From a virus (lineage: Duplodnaviria > Heunggongvirae > Uroviricota > Caudoviricetes): 42,292 bases of DNA. The translations under genes were made by a program, and so were the position numbers. This document shows, piece after piece, positions 12,460 to 31,447 of the stretch; within the stretch, counting starts at the first letter, position 1; each line of letters opens with the position of its first letter. Where the stretch lies: positions 1 through 42,292 of IMG/VR virus record IMGVR_UViG_2651869755_000015; one strand, 5' to 3'. Below the pieces are notes generated by a model that was given only the letters and a program-made list of their open reading frames with translations, did no database searches and was not told the DNA's origin.

Positions 12460-12470
12460 GCATGTTACTA

Positions 12471-12503
12471 TTACCACAACGGTAACTATTACCACGGTGG
12501 TTA
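12471..12503. promoter_or_regulatory. Operator-like dyads immediately upstream of terS
   Basis: TTACCACAACGGTAA (12471-12485) and a degenerate copy TTACCACGGTGGTTA (12489-12503) within ACTATTACCAC direct repeats. Confidence 0.5.
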
Positions 12504-13099
12504 TGATGCCTGCTGAACCTAAAACCTATAAACGCAAATCAACGCAATTTAAGCCGCTCACAGCAATGCAGGAGGCTTATTGCCAGTCATACATCAAAAC
12601 GCCTGAAAACCAGACTCAGGCAGCGATTAACGCAGGATTCTCCCCAAATACAGCGGCAGTTAAAGCCAGTGTCATGATGCGCGATGAACGCATTCAAAAA
12701 CGGATTGCCGAGTTGATGGAGGAGCGCAACAAACGAATGCGCGTCAGTGCTGATTACGTTCTCATGCGCCTGGTGGAGATCGACCAGATGGACGTGATTG
12801 ATATCCTCAACGACGATGGGAGCCTTAAGCCAATCCGCGAGTGGCCGAAAATCTGGCGCACTACGCTTAGCGGCTTTGATCTGTCATCGACCATCATGAA
12901 CATGAACGAGGATTCGATAGAGACAATCCTCAAAAAAATTAAATGGCCTGACAAGGTGAAGAACCTTGAGCTGATTGGTAAGCACGTCGATGTCAATGCA
13001 TTCAAAGAACGCCTGGATGTTAATGTGAATGTGACAATTGCTGATCGCATAGCGGCAGCCAGGAAGAGACTGAAAGAACGTCAGGATGGCAATCAGTGA
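12503..13099 (+). CDS. Terminase small subunit
   Basis: ATG at 12503 (track ORF starts upstream at 12425); HTH-like N-terminal region LTAMQEAYCQSYIKT...AAINAGFS; 4-nt overlap with terL. Confidence 0.65.
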   Translation: MMPAEPKTYKRKSTQFKPLTAMQEAYCQSYIKTPENQTQAAINAGFSPNTAAVKASVMMRDERIQKRIAELMEERNKRMRVSADYVLMRLVEIDQMDVIDILNDDGSLKPIREWPKIWRTTLSGFDLSSTIMNMNEDSIETILKKIKWPDKVKNLELIGKHVDVNAFKERLDVNVNVTIADRIAAARKRLKERQDGNQ

Positions 13100-14571
13100 C
13101 AGATGCAGCGTTATCTCCTGAAGAGCAGTTGATCGAGGATATTGCAGGGTTCACTCACGATCCGCTTGGCTATGCCCTCTATGCGTTCCCGTGGGGGGAA
13201 GAGGGGACTGAACTGGCACATGCCACCGGTCCACGTCAGTGGCAGGCTGATGCGTTCCGAGAGATACGTGATCACCTGCAGAATCCAGAGACGCGCTATC
13301 AGCCGCTTATGCTGGCACGCGCTTCTGGTCACGGTATTGGTAAATCCGCATTCATCTCAATGCTGATCAACTGGGGCATGTCCACTTGCGAGGATTGTAA
13401 GGTCGTGGTGACCGCCAACACCGACAACCAGCTACGAACGAAGACCTGGCCGGAAATTATCAAGTGGTCGAACCTTGCTATCACGAAAGACTGGTTTACC
13501 TGTACCGCTACCGCGATGTACAGCAATGATCCTGGGCACGACAAGCGGTGGCGAGCTGACGCAATCCCCTGGTCTGAGCACAACACTGAGGCATTCGCCG
13601 GATTACACAACGAGCGCAAACGCATCATCGTGGTATTCGATGAAGCGTCGAACATTGCGGATCTGGTGTGGGAAGTTGCTGAGGGTGCGCTTACGGACGA
13701 AGACACTGAGATTATCTGGGTGGCGTTCGGAAACCCGACGCGTAATACCGGGCGATTCCGTGAATGTTTCCGCAAGTATAAACACCGCTGGAAAACTGCG
13801 CAGATTGACAGCCGGACGGTGGAAGGCACCAACAAACAGCAGTTGCAGAAATGGGTTGATGACTACGGGGAAGACAGCGACTTCGTTAAAATCCGTGTGC
13901 GCGGCATATTCCCGGATGCATCTGAATTGCAGTTTATCCCTACCGGTCTTACTGACGAGGCAATGAAACGGGTGGTAACCGCTGCGCAGGTGGCACATGC
14001 TCCGGTGATAATCGGCGTTGACCCGGCATACTCCGGTGTTGATGACGCTGTGATATACCTGCGGCAGGGGCTGCACAGTAAGGTGCTGTGGACTGGCAAC
14101 AAGACCACTGACGATCTGATTATGGCGAAGCGTATCGCTGACTTTGAAGACCAGTATCAGGCTGACGCGGTGTTCATCGACTTCGGTTACGGAACCGGTT
14201 TGAAGTCAATCGGTGATGGCTGGGGTCGTACATGGCAACTTGTTCCGTTCGGTGGCGCGTCTACTGACCCGCAGATGCTCAACAAGCGTGGGGAGATGTT
14301 CAACTCATGCAAGACATGGCTGAGGCTCGGCGGCATGCTGGATGACCAGGAAACAGCGGACGACCTGTCGACGGCAGAGTACAAAGTTCGCGTGGACGGT
14401 AAAATCGTTATCGAACCGAAGGAAGATATCAAAGAGCGACTTGGGCGTTCTCCTGGTAAAGGCGATGCGCTACTGCTGACGTTTGCGTTCCCTGTGTCGA
14501 AGCGTCTGCGAATTCCCGGGCAGCAGAACCAGCAAGGCAAAGCCATCACAGACTATGATCCTTTTGCATAA
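13096..14571 (+). CDS. Terminase large subunit
   Basis: 491 aa; Walker A-like ASGHGIGKS; size and position after terS. Confidence 0.9.
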   Translation: MTDAALSPEEQLIEDIAGFTHDPLGYALYAFPWGEEGTELAHATGPRQWQADAFREIRDHLQNPETRYQPLMLARASGHGIGKSAFISMLINWGMSTCEDCKVVVTANTDNQLRTKTWPEIIKWSNLAITKDWFTCTATAMYSNDPGHDKRWRADAIPWSEHNTEAFAGLHNERKRIIVVFDEASNIADLVWEVAEGALTDEDTEIIWVAFGNPTRNTGRFRECFRKYKHRWKTAQIDSRTVEGTNKQQLQKWVDDYGEDSDFVKIRVRGIFPDASELQFIPTGLTDEAMKRVVTAAQVAHAPVIIGVDPAYSGVDDAVIYLRQGLHSKVLWTGNKTTDDLIMAKRIADFEDQYQADAVFIDFGYGTGLKSIGDGWGRTWQLVPFGGASTDPQMLNKRGEMFNSCKTWLRLGGMLDDQETADDLSTAEYKVRVDGKIVIEPKEDIKERLGRSPGKGDALLLTFAFPVSKRLRIPGQQNQQGKAITDYDPFA

Positions 14572-14574
14572 AAA

Positions 14575-14594
14575 AGCCCGCGAATCGGCGGGCT
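14575..14594 (-). terminator. Hairpin terminator (mainly minus-strand) between terL and moron
   Basis: Stem AGCCCGC/GCGGGCT with T-run on the minus strand; adjacent to palindrome copy 2. Confidence 0.5.
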
Positions 14595-14597
14595 GAT

Positions 14598-14611
14598 TGT
14601 GACATGTCACG
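14598..14611. repeat. 14-bp perfect palindrome TGTGACATGTCACG (copy 2)
   Basis: Identical 14-mer to copy 1. Confidence 0.85.
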
Positions 14612-14614
14612 GCG

Positions 14615-15037
14615 TTAGAAGGTTATTTTATCGAATGCGGCGTTGATTGCCTTGGCGTCCTGCTCAGCACCAACCACATCAAGTAAAGATCTTTTACTAA
14701 GCACTTCAGCCAGGCATTGTAACTTCATGTTGTATAAGTTTTCGCGCATGTAATCATCATCACTTTTTTCTTTGGCGTATACAGCGCGAGAAATATCAAA
14801 CACATTGCCTTTTTCCATTTCAGTTTTCTGCGCTGAAATCCAGTCATGGCAAGTAACTCCTATTCCATGGTCATCGCTAAGCGTTAACCCGGCAAGTCGC
14901 TCACCTGGAATTGCTTCACAAAGCATTTCATTTCCTGCAAAAACACCATAAAAAATTGAGTCATCACCCTGAACAATGCGTACATATTTGCACGGCCATT
15001 CATTTAGATATTTAGCTAGCATGTCGGCTGTTTTCAT
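14615..15037 (-). CDS. Hypothetical moron protein (140 aa)
   Basis: Opposite-strand gene inserted between terL and portal, bounded by terminator hairpins on both sides. Confidence 0.5.
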   Translation of the reverse strand: MKTADMLAKYLNEWPCKYVRIVQGDDSIFYGVFAGNEMLCEAIPGERLAGLTLSDDHGIGVTCHDWISAQKTEMEKGNVFDISRAVYAKEKSDDDYMRENLYNMKLQCLAEVLSKRSLLDVVGAEQDAKAINAAFDKITF

Positions 15038-15060
15038 GATCTCACCTTAAAAAAATGCCC

Positions 15061-15084
15061 GGCGAACCGGGCTGTACTGGTTTA
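15061..15084 (-). terminator. Rho-independent terminator downstream of tRNA
   Basis: Minus strand GCCCGGTTCGCCGGGC followed by ATTTTTTT. Confidence 0.5.
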
Positions 15085-15202
15085 CAGCATGAAGTCATCG
15101 CAATGGCGTCCTGCTGTAAAAAGGGCGGTGATAGTTCTTCAAGGGAAACCATCACCGCCAAGCCCCTGGAACTTCTGGCATCACGGTCCTCAGGCGTGAT
15201 TC

Positions 15203-15279
15203 TGGCGTGGCATGCAGGATTCGAACCTGCGACCAACCGCTTAGAAGGCGGTTGCTCTGTCCAACTGAGCTAATGCCAC
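15203..15279 (-). tRNA. tRNA-Arg (anticodon UCU)
   Basis: Minus-strand 77-nt sequence GTGGCATTAGCTCAGTTGGACAGAGCAACCGCCTTCTAAGCGGTTGGTCGCAGGTTCGAATCCTGCATGCCACGCCA folds as a cloverleaf (7-bp acceptor stem, GTTCGAATC T-loop, anticodon loop CTTCTAA, 3' CCA). Confidence 0.85.
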
Positions 15280-15601
15280 AACGCTGAGAGCACTTAGCCT
15301 GTTAAGGCGCCACACTTTGTCGCGGCTCCATAAATGCTCTCATCGTTGTACCCTCGTCTCTTCCGAGGCGTCACACCGAATCGCCGGGATGGTGAATCCC
15401 CGTGCGCGGAATAAAACCGCTCGACTTGCACATTCCGGCTACCTGGTTCGTTTGCCCGAGCAAGGGAGGGTGCCCCTTAAACGTATCCAGACCGCTATCG
15501 TCGCATGTGCCATACGCCGTACTGCTCAAAATAAAAGCTCACTCCACCTGTTCAATTTAACGACAAGCCAGTCAGGTTAGTAACCGGAATGAACTCTTTA
15601 G

Positions 15602-15616
15602 TTACCTGAAAGGTAA
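15602..15616. promoter_or_regulatory. Operator-like dyad TTACCTGAAAGGTAA upstream of the structural operon
   Basis: Perfect dyad, identical to the site at 35706-35720; followed by CATATGTGGTTAAATTGGTAAT. Confidence 0.55.
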
Positions 15617-15706
15617 TAATTTGTGCGTTAAATGTCAACTGTCTACGATAAATAAATCATATGTGGTTAAATTGGTAATAATTTAATTGCGTACGGAGTC
15701 ATTGAT

Positions 15707-15913
15707 ATGTGCATGGGTAGCTCACCATCAGTGCCTGCAACACCAGAAGTTCAGGCAGCACCACAGGAGCAGGATGCCGCCGTTGTTGATGCCCGCGACG
15801 AAGAAACACGTCGCCGTCGCGCTGCTGCTGGTCGTAGTTCTACGCTGCTTACCGGTTCTCAGGGCGACACATCAACCGCTAATACCAGCGGTAAAACGCT
15901 GCTTGGTCAGTAA
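15707..15913 (+). CDS. Hypothetical small protein (68 aa) preceding portal
   Basis: ATG preceded by CGGAGTCATTGA, the same initiation context as the portal gene; low-complexity sequence. Confidence 0.35.
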   Translation: MCMGSSPSVPATPEVQAAPQEQDAAVVDARDEETRRRRAAAGRSSTLLTGSQGDTSTANTSGKTLLGQ

Positions 15914-15927
15914 CCGGAGTCATTGAA

Positions 15928-17607
15928 ATGGCGGAAACAACTAAAGAGCGATTGAACAAACAGTTCGCACAACTTGAAAGCGAGCGTCAGTCGTTCGAGC
16001 CGCACTGGCGCGAGTTGAGTGATTACATCAACCCGCGTGGTTCCCGCTTTCTGACTTCTGAGGCCAACCGTAACGATCGGCGCAATACACGCATTATTGA
16101 TTCGACCGGGACTATGGCGGCGCGCACTCTCGCCAGCGGCATGATGTCAGGCATCACAAGCCCCGCGCGTCCGTGGTTTCGCCTGGCTACGCCAGATCCT
16201 GAAATGATGGATTATGGCCCTGTTAAGTTGTGGCTTGAGGCAGTTCAGAACCGCATGAACGATATGTTCAATAAGTCGAATCTCTACCAGTCTCTTCCGC
16301 AGTTATACGGAAGCCTCGGCACATACAGCACTGGTGCAATGGCAGTGCTGGAGGATGACGAGGACATCATTCGCACAATGCCATTCCCGATAGGCAGTTA
16401 CTACCTGGCTAACTCACCTCGTGGCAGTGTTGACACCTGTTTTCGCAAGTTCTCTATGACTGTTCGTCAGCTTGTTCAGGAGTTCGGGCTAAATAACGTC
16501 AGCGAATCCGTAAAAAGCATGTGGGAAAGCGGCACCTACGAGAAGTGGATCGAAGTGATGCATTCGGTTTACCCGAACATTGACCGCGATACATCGAAGC
16601 TGGATAGCAAGAACAAGCCATTCAAATCGGTTTATTACGAGGTTGGTGGAGATAACGACAAGTTGTTGCGTGAGTCCGGATTCGATGAGTTTCCAATTAT
16701 GGCTCCGCGCTGGGAAGTTAACGGCGAAGATGTTTATGGATCATCATGCCCGGGTATGCTGGCGCTTGGGCCTGTTAAGGCATTGCAGCTTCTCCAGAAG
16801 CGCAAGTCGCAGTTGATTGATAAAGCCACCAATCCGCCGATGGTTGCTCCGACTTCCCTCAAGAATCAGCGCGCCTCCCTTCTTCCTGGCGACATCACGT
16901 ATATCGATCAGATTACTGGTCAGGATGGCTTCAGGCCTGCTTATCTGGTTAACCCCAGTACAGCAGATTTGGTGGCAGACATTCAGGACACTCGTCAAAT
17001 CATTAACAGCGCCTACTTTGTCGATCTGTTCATGATGTTGCAGAACATCAATACCCGCTCGATGCCTGTTGAAGCGGTGATCGAAATGAAAGAAGAAAAA
17101 CTTCTGATGTTGGGGCCGGTTCTGGAGCGTCTGAACGACGAATGTCTTAATCCTCTCATTGACCGCGCTTTCTCGATGATGGTGCGCAAAAACATGCTGC
17201 CGCCACCGCCTGACGCGATGGAAGGCATGCCCCTGAAGGTCGAATACATTTCCGTCATGGCTCAGGCGCAGAAGTCTATCGGCCTGTCCAGTCTGGCGTC
17301 CACGGTTAACTTCATTGGTCAACTTGCGCAAGCGAAACCAGAAGCTCTCGACAAACTCAACGTTGATCAGGCGATCGATGCATTCGCTGATATGTCCGGA
17401 GTGTCTCCAACCGTCATTGTTCCGCAGGAACAGGTTGAGCAGGCTCGCCAGCAACGGGCACAGCAACAACAGCAGCAACAAATGATGGCGATGGGGATGG
17501 CGGCGGCACAGGGGGCCAAGACGCTAAGCGAAGCTAAAACTTCGGATCCGAGTGTGTTGTCAGCTATGGCGAATGCAGTTAGTGGTCAGGGTGGGCAATC
17601 ACAATGA
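15928..17607 (+). CDS. Portal (head-to-tail connector) protein, podovirus/T7-like
   Basis: 559 aa; Gln/Ala/Met-rich C-terminus (QQRAQQQQQQQMMAMGMAAAQGA) resembling the recalled T7 gp8 C-terminus; position after terminase. Confidence 0.8.
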   Translation: MAETTKERLNKQFAQLESERQSFEPHWRELSDYINPRGSRFLTSEANRNDRRNTRIIDSTGTMAARTLASGMMSGITSPARPWFRLATPDPEMMDYGPVKLWLEAVQNRMNDMFNKSNLYQSLPQLYGSLGTYSTGAMAVLEDDEDIIRTMPFPIGSYYLANSPRGSVDTCFRKFSMTVRQLVQEFGLNNVSESVKSMWESGTYEKWIEVMHSVYPNIDRDTSKLDSKNKPFKSVYYEVGGDNDKLLRESGFDEFPIMAPRWEVNGEDVYGSSCPGMLALGPVKALQLLQKRKSQLIDKATNPPMVAPTSLKNQRASLLPGDITYIDQITGQDGFRPAYLVNPSTADLVADIQDTRQIINSAYFVDLFMMLQNINTRSMPVEAVIEMKEEKLLMLGPVLERLNDECLNPLIDRAFSMMVRKNMLPPPPDAMEGMPLKVEYISVMAQAQKSIGLSSLASTVNFIGQLAQAKPEALDKLNVDQAIDAFADMSGVSPTVIVPQEQVEQARQQRAQQQQQQQMMAMGMAAAQGAKTLSEAKTSDPSVLSAMANAVSGQGGQSQ

Positions 17608-17900
17608 CAGATTACGAAGACGATCAACTGAAAGAAGAAAACGCCCGTAAGCAACGTGACATGGCGCAGCGTGAAATTGATGACATTCGCTTTGTCATGA
17701 GCAGTGAACAGGGGCGTCGCGTTGTCTGGTCGGTACTGGAGAAAGGCCGTGTGTTTTCCGCTATCTCACCGATGGACGCTATGGCAATGGCATTTAATGA
17801 GGGGCAACGCAATCTGGCGCTGGAACTGTTTCAGCGCGTTATGGCGCATTGCCCTGAACAGTATTTGAAGATGGCCAAAGAGGCCAGTGAACAGGAGTGA
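17604..17900 (+). CDS. Hypothetical head-assembly protein (98 aa)
   Basis: Small acidic ORF between portal and scaffold, 4-nt overlap with portal. Confidence 0.45.
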   Translation: MTDYEDDQLKEENARKQRDMAQREIDDIRFVMSSEQGRRVVWSVLEKGRVFSAISPMDAMAMAFNEGQRNLALELFQRVMAHCPEQYLKMAKEASEQE

Positions 17901-17902
17901 TC

Positions 17903-18598
17903 ATGAATTTATTTGAGCGTTTGCTGTATCGCCGTCTTTGCAATGAGCAACCAGTCGATGGTGGAGCAGCTCCGGCTGCGTCAGAACCGTCAGCGCCTGC
18001 AGGTGATAACCATGCTCCAGTTGGTGATCCATCACAACCGGAAGGTGATAAGTCACAACCTGTTGCTGATGGCGATAAACCGGCTGATGACAAAAATCCT
18101 GAAAACGATAAGCAGGATGAAAAAAAGGACGGCGATAAACCAGAGGGTGCGCCTGAGAAGTACGAGTTTCAGGCTGCCGAAGGCGTAGAGCTGGATACAG
18201 AAGCGTTGAAGGAATTCGAGCCGGTGGCGCGAGAACTAAACCTGACCAACGAGCAAGCGCAAAAGCTGGTTGATGCTTATCCGAAGATTCTGGCAGGTGT
18301 TCAGCAGCGCCAGGCAGAAGCCTGGCAGAAAACAACCGAGCAGTGGGCTGCGGATGTAAAAGCTGATAAAGAAATCGGTGGCGACAAGTTGATTTCTAAC
18401 CTTAGCGCCGCACAGCGTGCGCTTGACCAGTTCGGGACACCTGAACTCAAAGAATATCTGAACACCACCGGGCTGGGTAATCACCCTGATCTGGTCAAAA
18501 CGTTCGTGAAAATCGGAAAGGCGATGTCTGAAGATGGCATGGTCACCGGTGGTAATGAAGGCCAGCGTAGTGCGGCCGAAGTGCTCTATGGCAAATAA
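17903..18598 (+). CDS. Scaffolding protein
   Basis: ATG at 17903 after CAGGAG; highly acidic, Pro/Asp/Lys-rich, low-complexity N-terminal half and helical C-terminal half; located between portal and capsid. Confidence 0.6.
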   Translation: MNLFERLLYRRLCNEQPVDGGAAPAASEPSAPAGDNHAPVGDPSQPEGDKSQPVADGDKPADDKNPENDKQDEKKDGDKPEGAPEKYEFQAAEGVELDTEALKEFEPVARELNLTNEQAQKLVDAYPKILAGVQQRQAEAWQKTTEQWAADVKADKEIGGDKLISNLSAAQRALDQFGTPELKEYLNTTGLGNHPDLVKTFVKIGKAMSEDGMVTGGNEGQRSAAEVLYGK

Positions 18599-18612
18599 GA
18601 GAGGAAATAACA

Positions 18613-19599
18613 ATGGCTGTTAAAGGCTTAACTGCGCTAACGCTGGCTGACTGGGGTAAGCGCGTCGATCAAAACGGGAAAGTCGATAAGATTATCGAGC
18701 TTCTCGGTCAAACTAACCCGATCCTTCAGGATATGCCTTTTGTCGAAGGGAACCTTCCTACCGGACACCGAACCACCATTCGTTCTGGTTTACCTTCAGC
18801 TACCTGGCGTTTGCTGAACTATGGCGTACAGCCAAGCAAATCAACCACAGTGCAGGTAACCGATTCCGTTGGCATGCTGGAAACCTATGCTGAAGTCGAT
18901 AAGTCACTGGCTGATCTGAACGGTAATACCGCCGAATTCCGCCTGTCTGAAGACCGCGCATTTATTGAAGCGATGAATCAGCAGATGGCGCAGACGCTGT
19001 TTTATGGTGATTCCAGCGTTAACCCTCAGCAGTTTATGGGACTGTCCTCCCGCTATTCCAGCCTGTCTGCAGGTAATGCTCAGAACATCATTGATGCTGG
19101 TGGCACGGGTACAGATAACACCTCAATCTGGTTAGTAGTGTGGGGCGAAAACACCGTGCATGGCATCTTCCCGAAAGGGCAGAAGGCTGGCATCCAGATG
19201 GAAGATAAAGGCCAGGTGACACTGGAAGATGCGAATGGCGGCAAGTACGAAGGCTACCGTACCCATTACAAATGGGACAACGGACTTACTCTGCGTGACT
19301 GGCGTTATGTTGTTCGCATTGCAAACATCGATGTCAGAAATCTTTCAGAACCTTCCTCTGCCGCAAATATTGCGAAGTTGATGGTTAAAGCACTGCATCG
19401 CATTCCAAACCGTGGCATGGGTCGCCCGGTGTTCTACATGAACCGCACTGTAGGCCAGGCTCTTGATCTGCAGTCTCTGGAGAAAACATCTCTGGCGATT
19501 AGCGTAAAAGAGACTGAAGGCGAGTGGTGGACGTCATTCCGTGGTGTACCAATCCGTGAAACTGATGCGCTTCTGGAAACAGAAGCCCGCGTGGTGTAA
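18613..19599 (+). CDS. Major capsid protein
   Basis: 328 aa following scaffold; followed by stem-loop GTGGGTC/GACCCAC (about 19608-19629) as often seen after capsid genes. Confidence 0.75.
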   Translation: MAVKGLTALTLADWGKRVDQNGKVDKIIELLGQTNPILQDMPFVEGNLPTGHRTTIRSGLPSATWRLLNYGVQPSKSTTVQVTDSVGMLETYAEVDKSLADLNGNTAEFRLSEDRAFIEAMNQQMAQTLFYGDSSVNPQQFMGLSSRYSSLSAGNAQNIIDAGGTGTDNTSIWLVVWGENTVHGIFPKGQKAGIQMEDKGQVTLEDANGGKYEGYRTHYKWDNGLTLRDWRYVVRIANIDVRNLSEPSSAANIAKLMVKALHRIPNRGMGRPVFYMNRTVGQALDLQSLEKTSLAISVKETEGEWWTSFRGVPIRETDALLETEARVV

Positions 19600-19650
19600 C
19601 GCCTGTTATTAACCTGTGGGTCGTAACAGACCCACTAATGGAGAAAGAAG

Positions 19651-20088
19651 ATGATCACCGACAAACTGTTGATGTTCTCCGAAGCACAGGCGGTAACTGA
19701 TACCGCGGCTTCTACTGACGTAATCGATCTCGGTCCAATTGATGGAAACCGTCGCGATATCGGTGTGGGTTACCCGCTTGAGTTTTGGGGGCTGGTTAAC
19801 GAAGCCGCCACGGCAAGTGGTGAGGCAACTGTAAACATCCAGTTGCAGACGAGTGAGAATAACAGCTCTTGGACCACTATTTATGATAGTGGTGCGTTGG
19901 CAAAGGCCACCCTGACAGCAGGTAAGCGAGTTGTTTCTGCAAAGGTGCCAGCCGGTGTTCAGCGATATCTGCGTGTTAACTACTCCGTCGCAACTGGCCC
20001 ACTAACGGCCGGCAAATTCACTGCGGGTATCAGTCTGGATGTTGATGCCAATACGCCGTACCCGATCCGCTCAAAAGTAACTGGTTAA
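19651..20088 (+). CDS. Hypothetical virion protein (possible capsid decoration/accessory)
   Basis: 145 aa directly downstream of capsid gene with good Shine-Dalgarno (GGAGAAAG). Confidence 0.45.
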   Translation: MITDKLLMFSEAQAVTDTAASTDVIDLGPIDGNRRDIGVGYPLEFWGLVNEAATASGEATVNIQLQTSENNSSWTTIYDSGALAKATLTAGKRVVSAKVPAGVQRYLRVNYSVATGPLTAGKFTAGISLDVDANTPYPIRSKVTG

Positions 20089-20098
20089 GGTGATATCG

Positions 20099-20434: not shown

Positions 20435-20450
20435 GCCTCGCGAATCAGAC

Positions 20451-20472
20451 AAGGGGCTTCGGCCCCTTTATT
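20451..20472 (+). terminator. Hairpin terminator after capsid module
   Basis: Stem AAGGGGC/GCCCCTT, loop TTCG, then TATT. Confidence 0.45.
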
Positions 20473-20490
20473 GCAGGAGTATAGAAACTT

Positions 20491-23567: not shown

Positions 23568-24031
23568 TGATCGATGTTCGAGTTATTCCCGCCACCGAAG
23601 AGCATCTTCAGATGATTTTGCCGGATGTTCGTCAGGCTGATATTGACGAACTGTATGCGGTATCGCTGATGACTACCGAAGATGCGCTGCGTGTTGGTCT
23701 TCGCACTGCGACTATGGCCTGGTCAGGGTTCGCGAACGGAGAACTGGTAACCATGTTTGGTGTATCTCCGGCGTCAATGATCGGTGGCAATGGTACACCC
23801 TGGCTGGTCGGAACCAGCCGTATTGAAAAATATCAGAAGACATTTCTTCGCCACTGCCGACCTGTATTGCAGCAGATGCTGGCAGTTTATCCGCGCCTGG
23901 AAAACTACGTCGACGAGCGAAACCATGTTGCCAAAGCATGGCTGCACTGGCTTGGATTCAGGCTTGAAGAAGCCGCGCCTTATGGTGCTCTTGGTCTTAA
24001 TTTCCACAGATTTCACATGGAGAGAAAATAA
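23567..24031 (+). CDS. Internal virion protein (gp13/14-position)
   Basis: 154 aa, coupled to neighbours; function by synteny only. Confidence 0.4.
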   Translation: MIDVRVIPATEEHLQMILPDVRQADIDELYAVSLMTTEDALRVGLRTATMAWSGFANGELVTMFGVSPASMIGGNGTPWLVGTSRIEKYQKTFLRHCRPVLQQMLAVYPRLENYVDERNHVAKAWLHWLGFRLEEAAPYGALGLNFHRFHMERK

Positions 24032-24576
24032 TGTGCGATCCGGTTATTGCTGGTGGCGCAATGCTCGCCATGAGTGGCATTCAGGCATACACCCAGTACC
24101 AACAGGGAAAGTATGCCTCGAAGGTTGCAGAAGCGAACGCAGATATAGCCACTGCTCAGGCAAATGATGCAATAAACAGAGGTAACGCTGAAGCTGAGCA
24201 ACGGCGCAGAGAGACCCGACAGCGGCTTGGTACTCAAGCGGCGACAATGGGGGCGACCGGCGCCGATTTATCTACCGGTAACGCGCTGGATATATTTGGC
24301 GACACTGCCCAGTTTGGCGCTCTTGATTCGCTGACGACGGTGAATAACGCGCAACGCGAGGCTTACGGTTATCAGGTTCAGGCTGCCAACTATAAAGCAG
24401 AAGCCAGTTCAGCCCGTAAACAGGGGAATGTGGGAGCAGCAACAACATTGCTCACTGCGCCTCTGAAGGCATACGGTGCGTACCAGATGTTTGGTGGGAC
24501 GTGGAGTCCGTTTACTCAAAGCACTCCTGCGCCAATCGGGGCAGCAGCAGGAACCAGATTACCCGGAGGATTATAA
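24031..24576 (+). CDS. Internal virion protein (Gly/Ala-rich)
   Basis: 181 aa, Ala/Gly/Gln-rich, TAATG coupling to next gene. Confidence 0.4.
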   Translation: MCDPVIAGGAMLAMSGIQAYTQYQQGKYASKVAEANADIATAQANDAINRGNAEAEQRRRETRQRLGTQAATMGATGADLSTGNALDIFGDTAQFGALDSLTTVNNAQREAYGYQVQAANYKAEASSARKQGNVGAATTLLTAPLKAYGAYQMFGGTWSPFTQSTPAPIGAAAGTRLPGGL

Positions 24577-27197
24577 TGCCAGTCGTACCAACAGTATCCG
24601 GACGTCAGGTTGAGAGCCGTGGAGTTCAGTCAGCAGGCTTACAGACGTTTTCTCAGCCAGGTATTGGTGATGCTTTTGTTCGGGCAGGGGCAGAGGCAAT
24701 TGATGTTTTTGGTCAGGCAAAACAGCGTGCCAATATTGCCTTGGTTCAGGAGGCATCCCTTAAACTCAGTCAGACAGGCAGTGATCTGCTGAATAATCCT
24801 GAAACAGGATTGCTTAACCTGAAAGGGAAAAATGCTATTGGAAAAGGCCATGAGTATACACAGCAGTTTGATGCTCAGATCGAACAACTGGCTATGTCGC
24901 TGCCGGATGAACAGGCTCGTAATGCTTTCATGCAGCAGGCGCAGCAGCAGCGTATTCAGTTCGCTACGCAGGCCGGGAGGTACGAAATAGGACAGGTTCG
25001 CCAGTATGAGGCGGATATGCAGGATGCGACACTAAAAAACCTATCGATGCAGTTCCGTCACCCGACAATGGCAAACCAGGCAGGATTGAAGGCATATCAT
25101 AGCATCATCGCTTACGGCGAAGCCCACGGCCAGAGTCAGGAAGAGATCGAACAGAACTGGGTTTCGTGGCGCGAGAATGCCGCGAACGGTGCGGCGGAGG
25201 CGTGGTATGTGCCGATGTATCAACAGATGATGGGTCCGAACGGCAAGATTGAGGTAACCGATACACCGAGTGAGGCGCAGTTATTCTCTGCAATAATCTG
25301 GCAGGAGAGTGGCGGAAATCAGTACGGAAAGGACGGAACACCTCTGGTGTCGCCAAAAGGCGCTGTTGGCGTAGCGCAGGTGACGGAAGATACTGGCCCC
25401 GAAGCTGCCCGCCTTGCTGGCGTGCCGTGGGACCGAGATAAATGGTTGAATGACCCGCGCTATAATGCCCGCTTGGGGCAAGCTTATTTCGGCGCGCAGA
25501 TGAAGAAATACGACAATAACCCGGTTCTGGCAGTAGCTGCCTATAACGCTGGCCCAGGAAAGGTTGACGGCTGGATTAAACAGATTGGCGATCCGCGCAC
25601 AGGCGAAGTCAGTAACGCCCAGTTTGCCGCAGCTATCCCATACGACGAGACGCGCAATTATGTGGCAAAAGTAACTGGCAGTGCTGGAGCTATTCCTGGA
25701 TCTGCGACGATGGAAAACCTCATCGCACAGCCATTCTGGAACGCCATGAGTCCGGACAAAAAGTCGCAGATGATGAGCAAGGTTGCTGGCATGTACGACA
25801 TGCAGGCTTCAGCCGGTCGCGTTGCGCTACAGAGTCGAATGCAGGACGACCTATCCAAAATTGAGGCCGGTAAGCAGGTGACGCCTATTTCAGCGCACGA
25901 ATGGGCCGCCGTTATGCCGCTTCAGGCAGCGCCTGCCGAGCGCCTGCAGATGGAAAAAACCTTCCAGCAATACCAGCAGGCAATGACGCTACAACCTGTT
26001 TATCAGACCATTATGCAGGGCAACGTCCAGCAGGGTACCGCCGCCGTGCAGGCAATGGCACCGCAGGAAAACGACCCTGACTTTAAATACAAAGCAGAGC
26101 TTTATGCATCGGCAAAGGTCAAGCTTGGGCAGGTACTGAAGGCGCGGGAAGCGGATCCGGGGGCATGGCTGCAACAAAACTCTCCGGTTGTGCAGGCTGC
26201 ATTCCAGCAGTACCTGAATGACCCTTCATCTGGTGAATACCTAGTTTCCCGCATACAGTCTGAAAAAGACCGCCTGGGGATAATGAGCAAAAAAGTTTTA
26301 CCGGAGTCCATGGTCAACGACGTACTGCAGCGTATTGACAACACGCAGGAATCTAGCGTAAAGGCCATTCAGTCGGTGGCGCAGTCGTTCGGCAAATACT
26401 CGGATAAGGTGATGCAGCAGGTTCAGAAGAGCGCTTATCCTGCGTTGCAGGTTGTCATGGCTACCGAGAACCCGCGCGCGGCAAATGCGCTCTGGCAAAA
26501 CCGTAGCGTTAAAACTGCTGACTTACGCGGCAGTCTTGAGAAAACCGACGCGGATAGCGCCGACTCGTCATGGAATGACCAATCGAAAGATTTTGCTGGC
26601 ACGATGGTTGTTCAGCCTGGTGGCACTGCCGTGTGGAATAACTTCAACGAGCAGGGAAAACGACTTACTTACATCAACATGCAGCGCGGAATGTCGGCGT
26701 CTGATGCAGCAAAACAGGCGTATCAGGACATCCTCGGCGAGCAGTACCAGACCAATGGCACTTGGCGGCTACCTAAGCGTGCAGGGATAGATATTCGTGA
26801 CGTTAACGATGGTGCCAATGCGTATCTGAAAAACCTGTCAGCAGATCAGATTATGCCGCTTATTGGTGACCCAAGGCTACCTGATGAGGTCAACCGTGAG
26901 CAGAGTATCTCCCGCATTCGTGATAATGCGCAGTGGGTTACCAACAGCGACGAAACAGGACTTACCCTGATGCTCAACGGGCTGATCGTCAACGGTGCCG
27001 ACGGCAACCCGATTACGGTGCCGTTCAACGATCTGGCGAAACTGGGAACAACCAACCGATCAGTATGGAACAGCATTACCAAGTTCATTGATACTCCGGT
27101 GAAATATACTCCCGGACAGTCTAAGGAATACAGCGCAGAAAGTCAGCGCGACAACCTGATTAACATTTTCCAGAACGGCCAGCAATCAGGACGATAA
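24576..27197 (+). CDS. Internal virion/ejection protein with lytic transglycosylase (SLT) domain
   Basis: ATG at 24576 after GGAGGA; SLT-type motifs WQESGGNQ...GVAQV...AAYNAGPGKV. Confidence 0.75.
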   Translation: MPVVPTVSGRQVESRGVQSAGLQTFSQPGIGDAFVRAGAEAIDVFGQAKQRANIALVQEASLKLSQTGSDLLNNPETGLLNLKGKNAIGKGHEYTQQFDAQIEQLAMSLPDEQARNAFMQQAQQQRIQFATQAGRYEIGQVRQYEADMQDATLKNLSMQFRHPTMANQAGLKAYHSIIAYGEAHGQSQEEIEQNWVSWRENAANGAAEAWYVPMYQQMMGPNGKIEVTDTPSEAQLFSAIIWQESGGNQYGKDGTPLVSPKGAVGVAQVTEDTGPEAARLAGVPWDRDKWLNDPRYNARLGQAYFGAQMKKYDNNPVLAVAAYNAGPGKVDGWIKQIGDPRTGEVSNAQFAAAIPYDETRNYVAKVTGSAGAIPGSATMENLIAQPFWNAMSPDKKSQMMSKVAGMYDMQASAGRVALQSRMQDDLSKIEAGKQVTPISAHEWAAVMPLQAAPAERLQMEKTFQQYQQAMTLQPVYQTIMQGNVQQGTAAVQAMAPQENDPDFKYKAELYASAKVKLGQVLKAREADPGAWLQQNSPVVQAAFQQYLNDPSSGEYLVSRIQSEKDRLGIMSKKVLPESMVNDVLQRIDNTQESSVKAIQSVAQSFGKYSDKVMQQVQKSAYPALQVVMATENPRAANALWQNRSVKTADLRGSLEKTDADSADSSWNDQSKDFAGTMVVQPGGTAVWNNFNEQGKRLTYINMQRGMSASDAAKQAYQDILGEQYQTNGTWRLPKRAGIDIRDVNDGANAYLKNLSADQIMPLIGDPRLPDEVNREQSISRIRDNAQWVTNSDETGLTLMLNGLIVNGADGNPITVPFNDLAKLGTTNRSVWNSITKFIDTPVKYTPGQSKEYSAESQRDNLINIFQNGQQSGR

Positions 27198-27198
27198 C

Positions 27199-28896
27199 AT
27201 GCCAATTTACACAGATGATCCGGGACAGGGAATTAACCAGCCAATTGGCAACGCGCCAGCAGGGCTTGGCGAATCGCTGCTTTCTTCCCTTAAGCAGGGA
27301 TTTGAAGAGGGGCCGGTCATGTCCGGCTACCGCTTTGCGCAGGCCGACTCGCTGGCGAATGACCAAAACTCTACAGTTATCAGTAAGCAGGAAGCGGATG
27401 AGCTCCTGAAGCAGTACGGCGTAAAGAGCATAAACGTGCCAGATTCTGGCGTTACGCAGGCTTTTCTCGATCATGTTATTGCCGAACGCAAAGATTCTCT
27501 GGCACGCCAGCAGATCGCGATGTCGGCACCGAGCGGGTGGGTAGCCACGCCGCTTAATTTCGCAGCCAGCCTAGCTGGTTCAATGGCAGATCCTGGTAAC
27601 GTGGCGCTGGCGCTGGTTCCGTTCGCTGGAGAAGCAAAGGCGGCTTCTGTGCTTGGCCGATTTGGCGAGCGATTTGTTGCTGGTGCACGCATGGGGGCAG
27701 CGCAGGCGTTGGTGACCGTGCCGCTTACCGGGCTGGCAGCGGCGGCGGAAGGTGACGACTTCACCTATAGCAACGCGTTGGAAAGTACTTTCTTTAACAC
27801 GATGGCTGGCGGTCTAATACATGCCGGCGGCGGCCTTATCGCCGATATCGTGCGACCGCGTCGCGTTCCCGATGCTGCAACGGGAGAGTCCCCGGCGTTT
27901 TCTGGCGATGCGCAGCCAACCCCGGTGATAACGCCTGACAACATTCCGGCGGGCGTGAATATCCCTGAGGTTGGCGCTAACGCAGATCTGGCGGCGGCCA
28001 TTTCCAGTGAAGCGGAGAGCTACGCATACAGCCGGGCTTATGACGACGTGGTTCCTGACTATATGGCGCGCCAGCAGGAGTTACAGAGCGGGCAGATCGG
28101 TAACGTTGCCGACCTGCGTGCCGAGCTTGCGGCTAATCAACGTCATGCTGACTCGCTTGATGCGACGCTGCAGCAGCGCACCAAAAAGTATCAGGGGCAG
28201 CGGATGAAGTTTAAGGATGCGCGCTCTAGGGCACTGAAAGAGATTCAGGCCGAGAAAGACGCCATCGCTGCACGCAATCAGGAGATCAACACATCGCTGG
28301 AGCAGAACGCGACAGCAGAGCAGGCGCGCTGGCGCCAGTCTCAGATTTCCCGCGGCGAGATCCCCGACGACCTGAAAGTCACCATTTCCGAGCGTGCGCA
28401 GCAGATCCTGGACGGCATGCAGATGTCGCCGGTCGCTGGCGCAGTTCGCACTGCCGCAAGCGCCATCAGGGATGCTGACTGGAACGTGAACCAGCAGGCG
28501 TATCGCGCTGCGCTGGCACACATGATGGAAGGACGTAGCCCAGATGTTGAGCCCTTCTATGAACTGCACAAACCAGCACTGCGTGAACGCGCCATCCATC
28601 GCATACAGAACCCGGCACGGCAGGTTGATGAAACGGCTCGCCCAGCAAGCGAAACAGCCGATCGGGTTTATCAAGAAACGCAAAAGGCAGATCATGAAAT
28701 TACCGCTGCCGCTGCAGACCTTGATAACGAGCTCAACCTGAGTAACGCCCTGCTTGACGATATCGCTGTCGATAACCCTGATCTTGCGACCACGTTGCGC
28801 CAGAAACTCAATGATATTCGTGCCGACGCCAGCGACAATAGTATGAGCAACGCTTTCCGGGCATTTGCCGCCTGTATGATTAACCGGGGGATGTGA
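27199..28896 (+). CDS. Internal virion/ejection protein
   Basis: 565 aa Ala-rich protein in the ejection-protein block. Confidence 0.45.
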   Translation: MPIYTDDPGQGINQPIGNAPAGLGESLLSSLKQGFEEGPVMSGYRFAQADSLANDQNSTVISKQEADELLKQYGVKSINVPDSGVTQAFLDHVIAERKDSLARQQIAMSAPSGWVATPLNFAASLAGSMADPGNVALALVPFAGEAKAASVLGRFGERFVAGARMGAAQALVTVPLTGLAAAAEGDDFTYSNALESTFFNTMAGGLIHAGGGLIADIVRPRRVPDAATGESPAFSGDAQPTPVITPDNIPAGVNIPEVGANADLAAAISSEAESYAYSRAYDDVVPDYMARQQELQSGQIGNVADLRAELAANQRHADSLDATLQQRTKKYQGQRMKFKDARSRALKEIQAEKDAIAARNQEINTSLEQNATAEQARWRQSQISRGEIPDDLKVTISERAQQILDGMQMSPVAGAVRTAASAIRDADWNVNQQAYRAALAHMMEGRSPDVEPFYELHKPALRERAIHRIQNPARQVDETARPASETADRVYQETQKADHEITAAAADLDNELNLSNALLDDIAVDNPDLATTLRQKLNDIRADASDNSMSNAFRAFAACMINRGM

Positions 28897-31445
28897 TGGC
28901 AGCAAACGAATTTTTGACGCAGTGCGAGCGCAGTGTAAATGCTGCCGCTGGTCGCGAGCTTTCTTCCGATGAGATGGAGTCGCTGGTGCGTGACATGAAC
29001 GACACCACTAGGCGAATTCTGGCGACCAATGAGGCGCTGTCTCTGGAAGAGGCCGCGATGCGCGCAGCGGAAGAACTGAGCAATGCCGATATGCTGGCAA
29101 AACAGATTGAGGCTCGCAATAAGGCAATCAACGCCCGTATTGCCGCACAACGACTTAGAGAGCTTCGTACTATCTGGAAAGACCGCCCGGATATCGGGCT
29201 TGAAGCAATGCTGGTTGGCCGCAACGATGCGCGTACCGGCGCCCGCCGGTCGGTATCTTCGGAGGTGGCGCAACTGCGCGGCAAGTATCATTCCGGTATC
29301 AACTACGATTTTGACCGTGCCGGGCTGGTGCAATTCATCGCCAGCGGCAGCAATGACCGGGAAATTGCCGATGCAATGTGGCGCATAGGGCGCGGGCAGT
29401 CAACTGACGGTATGACAAAGCAATCCGTAAGCGCTGCACAAATCATCATGAAATGGCAGGAAACTGCGCGCATTGATGAGAACCGCGCCGGGGCATGGAT
29501 ACGCAAAGAGCCGGGCTATATAGTGCGCCAGTCACACGACATCATGAAGATCCGCGCCGCAGGTTATGAAGCATGGCGAAATGCTATTCTCCCGCGCCTT
29601 GATGAGCGCACTTTTGACGGCGTGGCTGACCGCGAGCAGTTCATGCGTAACATTTATAACGGGCTGGCTTCCGGCGTGCATCTTACATCTGAAAAGCCCG
29701 ATTGGATGAATGGCTTTAAGGGATCGGCGAACGCAGCTAAACGCGCCAGCCAAGAGCGAATTTTGCACTTCAAAGATGGTATCTCGTGGCACGAGTACAA
29801 CCAGCAATTCGGCACCGGCAGCCTGCGAGAAGCGCTGTTTGGTGGCTTAAACAGCGCTGCCCGCACAACGGGCATGATGCGCGTACTGGGCACTAACCCA
29901 CAGAACATGTTTAAGTACCTGACGGACGCCATTGCTGAAGATATCAGCAAATCCGGAAGACCGGCAGCGTTGGCTGACTACATGACGAAGGTGCGTCGCA
30001 TTAACCGTACCGTAATGCCGCAGGTTGACGGCTCGCTAAATATTCCTGGCAGCGTAGGCTGGGCCAATGCGTCGGCGGCTGTACGCGGCTGGTTGCGTAT
30101 GAGCCAACTTGGTGGCGCGGTAATCTCATCGTTTAACGACGTGCCTATCGCCGCTACCGAGATGCGCTACCAAGGGCAGAATTTTATGCAGGCGTTGCTT
30201 GGTGCTATGAGAGGCCGCTTCACGCGTTACAACAGCGCGGAGCAGAAAGAGATCCTTTCCTCTATCGGAGTTTATTCCGACTCCATGACGCAGGAAATCA
30301 TCCGGCGCATATCTGGTGATGACACGCTGAATGGAAAGCTTGGTCGCGCGCAGCAGCTTTTCTTTAAGTACAACCTCATGAACTTCTGGACCGAGAGCGG
30401 TCGCAACAGCAACGCCATGATGATAACCAACTGGCTTGCAAAGAATGCTGACCAGTCTCATGCGCGGCTACCGGAAGACCTGCGACGCGTGCTGGATCTG
30501 CACGGTATTGGCGAACGTGAGTGGGAAATTTTTCGCAACATGGACATGGCCGATAGCGAAGGTCGTAAGTTCATGACGACCAGCGGCATCCGCGGCGTGC
30601 CTGACGAAGTGATTGCCGGTTATGTAGAGAGTAAGGGGATCAAACCAACGCAGCGCGCTATCGCTGACGCACGCGATCAATTGGAAGGGCAGTTGCGCGG
30701 CTACATCCTTGACCGCCTGAATATCGCCATGTCAGAGCCTGGCGATCGCACGCAGGCGTTTATGAAGATGGGCACGGTGCCAGGAACGGTGGCTGGGGAA
30801 GCAATACGATTCGCTGGTCAGTACAAATCGTTCACTGCAAGCTTCATGCAGAACGTACTAGGACGCGAAGTATTCGGGCGTGGTTATATTCCTGCTGGGC
30901 TTGGTGAGTCGAAAACCGGATCGCTGACGAATGCGCTGCTACGTAACGGGAAGGGGGCTTTCCTTGGTGCTGCAAACCTCTTTGTCTGGGCGACTATGTT
31001 TGGTTATATCTCCATGCAGTCAAAACTCATGCTGAAAGGGCAAACACCACGCCCGGCAGATGCCAAGACGTTTCTCGCAGCCGCATCTCAGGGGGGCGGT
31101 CTTGGCATCTTGGGTGACTTCATGTTTGGTGAGGTCAACCGCATGGGGGCCGGGCCGGTTACGTCGCTAATGGGGCCAGCAGCATCGAACGCTGACAGCA
31201 TTATCACGCTGCTCCAGCAGACCACGAGAGGGGATGCAGATTTGGGTGACTGGTATCGCACGGCACTTGACAATACGCCATTCCTCAACGTGTTCTGGCT
31301 TCGTACGGCGATGAATGGTTTAATATTGAACCGGATACAAGATGCCCTTGACCCAGGCTCTCTTGAGCGTTATCAGCGCCGTGTTGAGCGTGAGCAGGGG
31401 AACGACTTTCTGATCCCACCATCGCAGTTCATGCTAGGTAAATAA
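28896..31445 (+). CDS. Large internal virion/ejection protein
   Basis: ATG at 28896 overlapping the previous stop; 850 aa; last gene of the high-GC structural block. Confidence 0.5.
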   Translation: MAANEFLTQCERSVNAAAGRELSSDEMESLVRDMNDTTRRILATNEALSLEEAAMRAAEELSNADMLAKQIEARNKAINARIAAQRLRELRTIWKDRPDIGLEAMLVGRNDARTGARRSVSSEVAQLRGKYHSGINYDFDRAGLVQFIASGSNDREIADAMWRIGRGQSTDGMTKQSVSAAQIIMKWQETARIDENRAGAWIRKEPGYIVRQSHDIMKIRAAGYEAWRNAILPRLDERTFDGVADREQFMRNIYNGLASGVHLTSEKPDWMNGFKGSANAAKRASQERILHFKDGISWHEYNQQFGTGSLREALFGGLNSAARTTGMMRVLGTNPQNMFKYLTDAIAEDISKSGRPAALADYMTKVRRINRTVMPQVDGSLNIPGSVGWANASAAVRGWLRMSQLGGAVISSFNDVPIAATEMRYQGQNFMQALLGAMRGRFTRYNSAEQKEILSSIGVYSDSMTQEIIRRISGDDTLNGKLGRAQQLFFKYNLMNFWTESGRNSNAMMITNWLAKNADQSHARLPEDLRRVLDLHGIGEREWEIFRNMDMADSEGRKFMTTSGIRGVPDEVIAGYVESKGIKPTQRAIADARDQLEGQLRGYILDRLNIAMSEPGDRTQAFMKMGTVPGTVAGEAIRFAGQYKSFTASFMQNVLGREVFGRGYIPAGLGESKTGSLTNALLRNGKGAFLGAANLFVWATMFGYISMQSKLMLKGQTPRPADAKTFLAAASQGGGLGILGDFMFGEVNRMGAGPVTSLMGPAASNADSIITLLQQTTRGDADLGDWYRTALDNTPFLNVFWLRTAMNGLILNRIQDALDPGSLERYQRRVEREQGNDFLIPPSQFMLGK

Positions 31446-31447
31446 TA

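Follow-up and report, generated by a model that had tools for sequence, protein, structure and literature searches.

Short-tailed temperate phages of the epsilon15/phiV10 group (genus Uetakevirus) have been studied at the level of both genome and structure, with capsid structures from cryo-electron microscopy (cryo-EM) for epsilon15 (PDB 3J40) and for Bordetella phage BPP-1 (3J4U), and with a 2016 analysis of their homology to T7 by Hardies and colleagues (PMC4819975). In that work, comparisons between hidden Markov models (HMM–HMM) related epsilon15 gp12 to T7 gp12 (tubular tail B) with E < 1e-10 and assigned epsilon15 gp17 to the T7 gp16 family (IVP-D, for internal virion protein D), while the IVP-C homologue was left unconfirmed, no gp15 homologue being known in the epsilon15 group. 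In HHpred notes of the epsilon15 RefSeq entry, gp8 is matched to the BPP-1 cement protein and gp11 to 3J4B (T7 tubular tail A), gp13 is given a GNAT fold, and gp15 is assigned as a lytic transglycosylase. Here, we compare with these systems a stretch of viral DNA of 42,292 nucleotides (nt) (IMG/VR record IMGVR_UViG_2651869755_000015), referred to in full as the window, and nearly all of this 42.3-kb window is a single prophage. We are highly confident that it belongs to the epsilon15/phiV10 group, is apparently intact, and is sited beside yfgI–yfgH in an Escherichia coli chromosome, its late operon being made up of positions 12425–31445 together with the tailspike gene. A preliminary description made from the letters of this DNA had called such temperate podophages less well characterised, a view that the cryo-EM capsids and the 2016 paper do not bear out, and its inference of a T7-like virion was right in outline and already published (PMC4819975).

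Identity and Extent of the Prophage

In a blastn map, window positions 1–1240, 1914–9200, 12408–14571, 15070–20483, and 20491–24994 align to phage phiV10 (NC_007804) at 96–98% DNA identity, and positions 35094–36307 and 39135–41131 at 88–89%. The map and the gene table agree that the order of these blocks is that of phiV10 opened at attP. Thus, the integrase is followed by leftward recombination and regulatory genes, the repressor with an open reading frame (ORF) in the position of Cro, replication genes, nin-type genes, and the terminase, and then by head, tail, and internal protein genes, an accessory slot, the tailspike, and the lysis genes. The genome comparison with epsilon15-like phages that the preliminary description had proposed shows collinearity along the whole genome with both epsilon15 and phiV10, in the blastn map as well as in the annotated gene tables. 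For both halves of the window, the nearest deposited phages are phiV10-type podophages, namely PAS61, HEMP4, ZX5, phiv142-3, TL-2011b, and O157 typing phages 9 and 10, while the next-ranked phage matches, at 77–82% identity, are Enterobacter phage Tyrion and Salmonella phage epsilon15. Large collinear DNA matches are also found in Tyrion and in one Klebsiella phage. Because the whole arrangement is common to epsilon15 and phiV10, with collinear DNA in Tyrion and the Klebsiella phage, it represents an old, stable lineage in which the early and the late parts are both conserved. The "mosaic" layout remarked upon previously is therefore the normal layout of the group and not a new hybrid. Lysis genes do lie after the tailspike and the integrase at the far left, but this order is identical to that of phiV10 and epsilon15 and, thus, cannot be called distinctive.

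The 96–98% identity to phiV10 and PAS61 extends over roughly 63–80% of the query segments, a shared portion that reaches genus-level similarity, near the Uetakevirus genus threshold of about 70% nucleotide similarity genome-wide and far under the species threshold of 95%. Since it has about two thirds of its genome in common with phiV10, at about 97%, the prophage would, judged by nucleotide similarity, rank as a further species within a known genus. The gp7-family capsid protein and the Bbp16-type cement protein that characterise Uetakevirus are both encoded. Moreover, no structural ORF differs in length from its phiV10 homologue, and the late ORFs outside the ejection cassette are full length, with 96–100% protein identity to those of functional phiV10. 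A 501-nt probe at the head–tail junction (around 20250–20750) detected this type of prophage in about 10% of complete E. coli genomes (517 of 5426). The host genes yfgI and yfgH occupy 41222–42292 on the minus strand, as a chromosomal flank that the annotations of strains ECONIH2 and GN04530 also show next to their prophages, and the right end of the window matches nearly all E. coli genomes. The right end of the prophage therefore lies near 41131–41200.

The Virion Module

Region 12425–31445 codes for terminase and for the T7-family portal, followed by the protease, the major capsid protein, the cement, the two tail proteins (adaptor and nozzle), and a set of five internal (ejection) proteins, and the virion module runs beyond 31445, via the tailspike, to 38800. 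The span of 12503–31445 originally given for the module begins inside the small-terminase gene and ends before the module does. The genes are on the plus strand unless otherwise stated. Small terminase TerS (12425–13099, PF03592) and large terminase TerL (13096–14571, phrog_2) are 97% identical to phiV10 24–2187, and they are followed by the portal (15928–17607; PF12236, E = 9.4e-188; phrog_332), a Bbp19-like small protein (17604–17900, PF25181), the head protease (17897–18598, phrog_458), and the major capsid protein of the epsilon15 gp7 family (18613–19599; PF20911, E = 1.5e-148). Downstream of the cement gene lies a conserved small protein, the homologue of epsilon15 gp9 (20090–20434, phrog_590), which is 100% identical to phiV10p12.

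Short-tailed virions were expected by the preliminary description from a tail pair of about 200 and about 820 residues, a block of five internal proteins, and an SLT-domain protein, and these genes are indeed present. The tail adaptor, of 201 residues and in the position of T7 gp11 (20491–21096), matches the 'Connector Protein' of the solved tail of podovirus Carin-1 (8CK1_E, E = 2e-26), and the tail nozzle, of 823 residues and in the position of T7 gp12 (21096–23567), matches the 'Tail Nozzle' of the same structure (8CK1_A, E = 1e-216). Both are 98–99% identical in amino acids to phiV10 p14 and p15. The internal block (23567–31445) opens with a 154-residue protein of the gp13 family (23567–24031), placed by phrog_308, a family that it shares with T7 gp13, and a 181-residue protein of the gp14 family (24031–24576), which matches PF24072 (T7_gp14) with 31.2 bits against a cutoff of 27. 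These two proteins are 98–100% identical to phiV10 p16 and p17. They are followed by the 873-residue SLT ejection protein (24576–27197), whose residues 233–339 match PF01464 (E = 1.7e-17). The fourth is an all-helical protein of 565 residues in the position of epsilon15 gp16 (27199–28896), with a match to phrog_3003 (E = 3e-280) and a weak one to phrog_342, the T7 gp16 family (E = 1.9e-7). The last, of 849 residues (28896–31445), is a homologue of epsilon15 gp17 according to hhalign (probability 98.9%, E = 2e-17). The profile of the 565-residue protein aligned to phiV10 p19 and epsilon15 gp16 without significance in hhalign, and the profiles of the 565- and 849-residue proteins gave no match to T7 gp15 or gp16; with profiles so shallow (effective number of sequences, Neff, about 1.5), these are weak negatives. 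Neither of the two has a meaningful sequence match in the PDB.

Between terminase and portal lie a minus-strand ORF of 140 residues (14615–15037; phrog_4846, a family without assigned function), which is unlike phiV10p03 and the 'Gp49 family' gene found at the same site in relatives, and a minus-strand tRNA-Arg (TCT) (15203–15279; ARAGORN; Rfam RF00005, 73 bits), which records of related phages and prophages annotate as well.

Depth of the T7 Relationship

The likeness to T7 is one of profile and architecture only. The portal belongs to the T7 gp8 family (PF12236), and the gp13 and gp14 families of T7 are both represented, since phrog_308 is matched by the 154-residue protein with E = 4.9e-62 and by T7 gp13 with E = 1.1e-42, and PF24072 exceeds its threshold. 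In pairwise BLASTP, the portal, adaptor, nozzle, and tailspike N-terminus gave no significant match to T7 gp8, gp11, gp12, and gp17, respectively. Adaptor and nozzle fall into PHROGs other than those of T7 gp11 and gp12. The case for their homology is indirect, made by the matches to the solved Carin-1 chains, the RefSeq note on epsilon15 gp11, and the HMM–HMM match of epsilon15 gp12 (PMC4819975). The SLT domain sits in the separate 873-residue protein. A gp17-like N-terminus, which the preliminary description had read in the tailspike, holds at profile level only: residues 5–149 of T7 gp17 and residues 1–250 of the tailspike have PHROGs 1640, 8460, 27277, 2710, and 26630 in common, but the match to PF03906, the gp17 N-terminal family, is below threshold (15.8 bits, E = 0.011, cutoff 25.2) and BLASTP gave no match. 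The same conclusions on T7 homology were reached for the epsilon15 group by HMM–HMM methods (PMC4819975). All ORFs of at least 500 residues are accounted for by the portal, the nozzle, three internal proteins, and the tailspike, and no match to RNA- or DNA-polymerase families was found among the proteins scanned, which included every ORF of this size. Autographiviridae carry a single-subunit RNA polymerase and are strictly lytic, whereas an integrase and a repressor are present here.

Absence of gp10 and Retention of the Capsid Cement Protein

The head and tail genes are joined at 20483–20491 (plus strand) by a junction without a gp10 gene, which corresponds in the blastn map to a step from 8133 to 8458 in phiV10. 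The entire 324-nt phiV10p13 gene is gone, and the upstream ribosome-binding site now stands 11 nt ahead of the adaptor ATG. The product of phiV10p13 is a homologue of epsilon15 gp10, the 111-residue 'capsid staple' (PF21628; PDB 3J40_N, E = 6e-21), and no copy of gp10 was detected anywhere in the window by tblastn. The same gp10-less, single-piece junction occurs in roughly one-eighth of 520 matching E. coli records, as estimated from 60 rows sampled evenly down the ranking, of which the first 8 were single-piece; in the remaining sampled records, the match spans about 816 nt, with 'gp10: capsid staple protein' annotated. It is also found in the cultured phage EC.W1-9 (PP445227), over 499 nt at 99.6%. 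In the EC.W1-9 record, the gp9 homologue is followed by that of the adaptor with no gene in between, and the phage is not among the 58 phage records in which a collection-wide tblastn found a gp10 homologue. This phage forms clear plaques and displays a 60-nm head and a short tail in electron microscopy. Since the gp10 family is otherwise conserved across distant podophages, being kept as far as BPP-1 (Bbp20), BcepC6B, and Xanthomonas and Caulobacter podophages (tblastn), its absence would most simply be a derived loss. Nor is gp10 obligatory in the Uetakevirus group, because the EC.W1-9 isolate also lacks it.

The cement (decoration) protein of the Bbp16 family is retained (145 residues, 19651–20088; PF21190, E = 1.8e-47). 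It matches the BPP-1 cementing protein (3J4U_H, E = 2.7e-28) and the Carin-1 decoration protein (8CJZ_B, E = 4e-23), and it is 36% identical to the 130-residue epsilon15 gp8 (E = 3e-20). In BPP-1, the Bbp16 cement protein is essential for infectious particles (PMC3863775). Moreover, a 2022 re-analysis based on AlphaFold concluded that the density attributed to 'gp10' in epsilon15 fits the 130-residue protein and not the 111-residue gp10 (PMC9207676), and natural gp10-less phages fit this re-assignment of the staple density. It can be proposed that gp10 is neither the cement protein nor needed for an infectious particle, because this prophage, about one-eighth of the related prophages, and EC.W1-9 all drop gp10 and keep the Bbp16-type cement; taken jointly with the reading of the ejection block as a swapping hot spot (see below), we give this proposal an even chance of being correct. 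If true, it would provide independent comparative support for the re-assignment in PMC9207676 and leave the conserved gp10 family with a dispensable role. A gp10-less lineage with a viable cultured member bears on which protein is the epsilon15 staple.

An Alternative Ejection Cassette

The three largest ejection proteins (24995–31445) form a cassette that is an alternative to that of phiV10. The DNA breakpoint is at 24994, and from there to about 32007 the blastn map shows no similarity to phiV10. At the protein level, the SLT protein and phiV10 p18 are about 93% identical over the first 140 residues or so and unrelated afterwards, the 849-residue protein is 23% identical to phiV10 p20, and no similarity could be detected between the 565-residue protein and its counterparts by position. 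Beyond two short fragments, the DNA of the cassette has no match in 50,697 phage records, and a search for distant similarity with 24990–32010 returned from phages only short fragments of 69–77% identity in Stenotrophomonas and Pseudomonas phages. The nearest phage homologues of the 565-residue protein are, likewise, from Stenotrophomonas (39%) and Pseudomonas podophages (29–35%).

The cassette is present in 64 complete E. coli genomes, in 49 cases with at least 99% identity. Homologues occur in Cronobacter (90–93% identity), Pseudescherichia (82–91%), and Klebsiella (73–87%), as well as in Enterobacter, Salmonella, Citrobacter, Dickeya, and Pectobacterium. Its guanine plus cytosine (GC) content is 55.3%, as compared with 49.7% in the phiV10 counterpart and 51% in the rest of the late operon, which would fit an import from a GC-richer pool of enterobacterial prophages. 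EC.W1-9 holds a third type of cassette, with proteins of 191, 915, 1129, and 283 residues. The ejection block thus looks like a recombination hot spot with one breakpoint within the SLT-protein gene, where at least three unrelated cassettes would follow a conserved N-terminal adaptor segment of about 140 residues. The loss of gp10 and the cassette are mutually independent, because the ECONIH2 prophage has this cassette plus gp10.

If the ejection block is indeed a swapping hot spot, such exchanges could tune the penetration of the envelope or evade defences that sense ejected proteins. The cassette is common in prophages of Enterobacterales and absent from every phage genome in the collection, and it belongs to the least understood components of podoviruses. 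Natural swaps of this kind mark functional boundaries, here near residue 140 of the SLT protein.

Early Region and Lysogeny

The window opens at the start codon of the integrase (1–1257, plus strand), a tyrosine recombinase with P4-type arm-binding and catalytic domains (PF13356, PF00589, PF22022) whose gene is 98% identical in DNA to phiV10 int (26927–28166). The early region proper extends over 1260–12428 on both strands, with Pfam matches and 96–97% identity to phiV10 across 1914–9200. A calcineurin-like metallophosphatase (1260–2039, minus; PF00149) lies between the integrase and an MT-A70 methylase gene, at a place where phiV10 has a DUF1382 gene. The MT-A70 methylase and the PerC-like and AlpA-like proteins (minus strand), as well as DUF1064, Ead/Ea22, and DUF551 proteins (plus strand), were recognised within the region by Pfam.

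As previously proposed, the phage is temperate and integrating, with a tyrosine integrase, a helix-turn-helix repressor (5570–6154, minus; HTH_3) facing a divergent 76-residue ORF in the position of Cro (6309–6539, plus), and a homologue of lambda P. The region is lambdoid only in part. Lambdoid features are present in the divergent repressor/Cro arrangement (HTH_3 repressor versus the 76-residue ORF) together with the tyrosine integrase (PF00589). The O/P replication pair described initially holds for P (7703–8503, plus; PF06992, E = 2e-56) but not for O, since the initiator (6906–7721, plus) combines a DnaT domain with HTH_36 and has no match to the lambda-O family in Pfam. The genes taken for Red-like recombination are RecT (3266–4147, minus; PF03837) and a RecE-like PDDEXK nuclease (4144–4965, minus; PF12684, DUF3799) instead of Exo and Bet, and they are functional analogues of Red from another family.

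Downstream of the replication genes, a DpdA-like protein of 265 residues (9912–10709, plus) matches phrog_887, 'queuine tRNA-ribosyltransferase' (E = 5.6e-104), has no sequence match in Pfam or the PDB, and is encoded by a DNA segment that does not align to phiV10. Salmonella phage 7-11, HK106, and a large number of Vibrio phages have homologues. The protein resembles a DpdA-type transglycosylase that stands alone, and it could place 7-deazaguanine made by the host in the phage DNA.

Accessory Slot, Tailspike, and Lysis Genes

The ejection cassette is followed by a low-GC accessory slot (31448–35647, both strands, GC 36–41%). Directly after the cassette, where phiV10 and epsilon15 have small membrane proteins (phiV10p21 and gp18, respectively), lies a gene for a secreted protein of 186 residues with an N-terminus resembling a signal peptide (31448–32008, plus; phrog_11983; GC 35.7%). 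Two genes for membrane proteins of 170 and 287 residues (32124–33516, minus; GC about 40%) are also present in the ECONIH2 prophage, and the GN04530 prophage has a YafO toxin gene instead. This is a variable moron slot, and its genes may serve exclusion or defence. For the accessory genes at 31448–33725 and 34551–35647, PADLOC, NCBIfam, and Pfam gave no assignment, and the PHROGs families found are without assigned function. The only signal in a search for defence systems came from weak matches of the ORF6N protein to the candidate family PDC-S05.

The gene of this ORF6N antirepressor-like protein (33839–34573, minus; PF10543) and an ORF of 168 residues (together 33839–35057) are preceded, just upstream and on the same strand, by a C4 antisense RNA (35103–35188, minus; Rfam RF01695, 76.7 bits) and isrK (35213–35289, minus; Rfam RF01394, 68.1 bits). 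This set resembles the immI module of P1 and would constitute a second immunity module between the internal-protein genes and the tailspike.

The tailspike (991 residues, 35825–38800, plus) matches domain 1 of the Carin-1 tailspike at residues 1–129 (E = 4.7e-25). It is predicted to consist of an N-terminal particle-binding part, a central receptor-binding/depolymerase part, and a C-terminal intramolecular-chaperone domain. Residues 1–219 are 75% identical to phiV10 p25, while the receptor-binding part, beyond about residue 160, is unlike phiV10 and matches prophage YDC107_2 in DNA. Matches to PF13884 and PF12219 are slightly under the curated cut-offs, and in the C-terminal region there are matches to solved endosialidase and tail-fibre chains (E = 1e-10 to 5e-21). 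Finally, the lysis cassette (39198–41004, plus) encodes two holin-like membrane proteins, a GH19 endolysin, and spanins of the Rz/Rz1 type (phrog_198, PF00182), with 89% identity to phiV10 24736–26736.

Alternative Explanations

Some points weigh against an apparently intact prophage of the epsilon15/phiV10 group. The attL side, which would define the att repeats, lies outside the window; from the gene order of K-12, the integration site would be expected at the 3' end of guaA. The inducibility of the prophage would have to be judged by analogy, just as its podovirus morphology is expected from the electron microscopy of EC.W1-9 and the solved tail of Carin-1. The putative roles of the 565- and 849-residue proteins are drawn from position and distant homology, and their AlphaFold2 models, built from alignments of 19 sequences, are too poor to add to this (mean predicted local distance difference test, pLDDT, 46 and 42; predicted template modelling score, pTM, 0.21 and 0.23). 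Furthermore, gp10 is missing although widely conserved, and this could be a defect. It might accordingly be argued that the loss of gp10 and a foreign ejection cassette disabled assembly, so that what the host keeps is the remnant of a defective (cryptic) prophage, all the more as gp10 is conserved across the whole epsilon15 group and no cultured phage carries the same cassette. However, the other late genes are full length and almost identical to those of functional phiV10, plaque-forming EC.W1-9 has the same gp10-less junction, and this junction recurs in about one-eighth of the E. coli prophages of this type. Moreover, the cassette is 98–100% identical in 61 genomes and abundant across Enterobacterales and, therefore, purifying selection is indicated. 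A cryptic prophage is thus considered unlikely.

Two further explanations concern the origin of the virion genes. The profile-level links to T7 gp8, gp13, gp14, and the gp17 N-terminus, next to a lambda-P homologue and a CI-type repressor, could suggest a recent chimera, in which a lytic, T7-like podovirus contributed the morphogenesis genes to a lambdoid early region with its integrase. This was rejected as very improbable, given that BLASTP finds nothing significant against T7 gp8, gp11, gp12, and gp17, that no RNA-polymerase family is matched among the scanned proteins, and that the arrangement of early and late parts is conserved from epsilon15 to phiV10, with collinear DNA as far as Tyrion and the Klebsiella phage. 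A P22-like temperate podovirus would also be short-tailed and possess an antirepressor module, and residues 221–270 of the tailspike resemble the head-binding linker of the P22/Sf6 tailspike (E = 6e-5). Nonetheless, the portal is of PF12236 and not of the P22 portal family, the capsid protein, of the epsilon15 gp7 family, is paired with a Bbp16 cement protein, a single nozzle of 823 residues takes the place of the P22 gp4/gp10/gp26 set, and no P22-like phages appear among the DNA matches to the structural region. With portal, capsid, and nozzle families that differ from those of P22, this identity was likewise rejected, as the least probable of those weighed.

Proposed Infection Cycle

An intact prophage of the epsilon15/phiV10 group would be expected to operate as its solved relatives and the literature indicate. 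The terminase would package DNA via the T7-family portal into an HK97-fold capsid, which the protease would mature and the Bbp16-type cement would reinforce, while a 12-mer adaptor and a 6-mer nozzle would build the short tail. The five internal proteins would be packaged in the head and, upon infection, ejected to form a trans-envelope channel spanning the periplasm, with the SLT domain cutting peptidoglycan locally. Six tailspikes would bind, and probably cleave, the O-antigen. Lysogeny would depend on the tyrosine integrase and on the HTH repressor with its partner in the Cro position, with a further, P1 immI-type antirepressor module under the control of an antisense RNA, and replication on the DnaT-like initiator and the lambda-P helicase loader. 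Homology in sequence or structure shows the identities behind this scheme, namely those of portal, capsid, cement, adaptor, nozzle, and gp13- and gp14-family proteins, of the integrase, repressor, P protein, and RecT, and of the endolysin, the SLT domain, and the tailspike anchor. The differences from phiV10, namely the loss of gp10, the three-protein ejection cassette, the tailspike receptor domain, and the accessory genes, would represent ordinary modular exchange, in which the ejection cassette was replaced by a type that is common in prophages of Cronobacter, Pseudescherichia, and Klebsiella.

Comparison with Known Systems

The closest described systems, phiV10 and its relatives PAS61, HEMP4, ZX5, phiv142-3, and TL-2011b, are collinear with the window gene for gene. 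In contrast to the window, phiV10 has the gp10 gene, another ejection cassette, another receptor domain in the tailspike, and other accessory and nin-type genes; in the window, the replacement covers about 730 C-terminal residues of the SLT protein as well as both large internal proteins after it, the oac O-acetyltransferase gene that follows the tailspike in phiV10 is lacking, and RecT and the RecE-like nuclease, fused in phiV10, are encoded by separate genes. The type member epsilon15 (NC_004775) has the same late order as the window, from gp1 to gp20 and on to the lysis genes, attP, and int. The two have in common the families of the gp4 portal, gp7 capsid protein, gp8 cement, gp11 adaptor, and gp12 nozzle, and, among the internal proteins, those of gp13, gp14, gp15 with its SLT domain, and gp17, at about 77% DNA identity where alignable. 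Unlike the window, epsilon15 has gp10 and genes for O-antigen conversion after the tailspike, and its gp16 is not detectably related to the 565-residue protein.

The sewage isolate EC.W1-9 has the gp10-less junction and the structural genes up to the nozzle in common with the window, and differs in its third type of ejection cassette and in its tailspike. The preprint describes this phage as without integrase and safe for therapy, whereas an integrase and a repressor are annotated in its GenBank record (PP445227.1, 34301–35551), in keeping with a temperate genus such as Uetakevirus. More distant relatives with solved structures are Cobetia phage Carin-1 (8CK1, 8CJZ), whose nozzle (E = 1e-216), adaptor, tailspike anchor, and decoration protein are homologous to those of the window, and BPP-1 (3J4U), with a homologous cement protein. 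Both infect distant hosts and have low overall sequence identity to the window, and BPP-1 carries a diversity-generating retroelement, whereas no reverse-transcriptase family was matched among the window proteins scanned. With T7, finally, the prophage has a common plan of portal, adaptor and nozzle, gp13, gp14, large ejection proteins with a lytic transglycosylase, and a related spike anchor, but the capsid protein and terminase of T7 are of other lineages and the phage of the window is temperate. Since its architecture is the textbook layout of epsilon15/phiV10-type phages, for which genomes, cryo-EM structures, and T7 homology have already been published, the layout as such adds little. It is a known kind of system, in which only two points stand out, its lack of gp10 and its uncultured ejection cassette.

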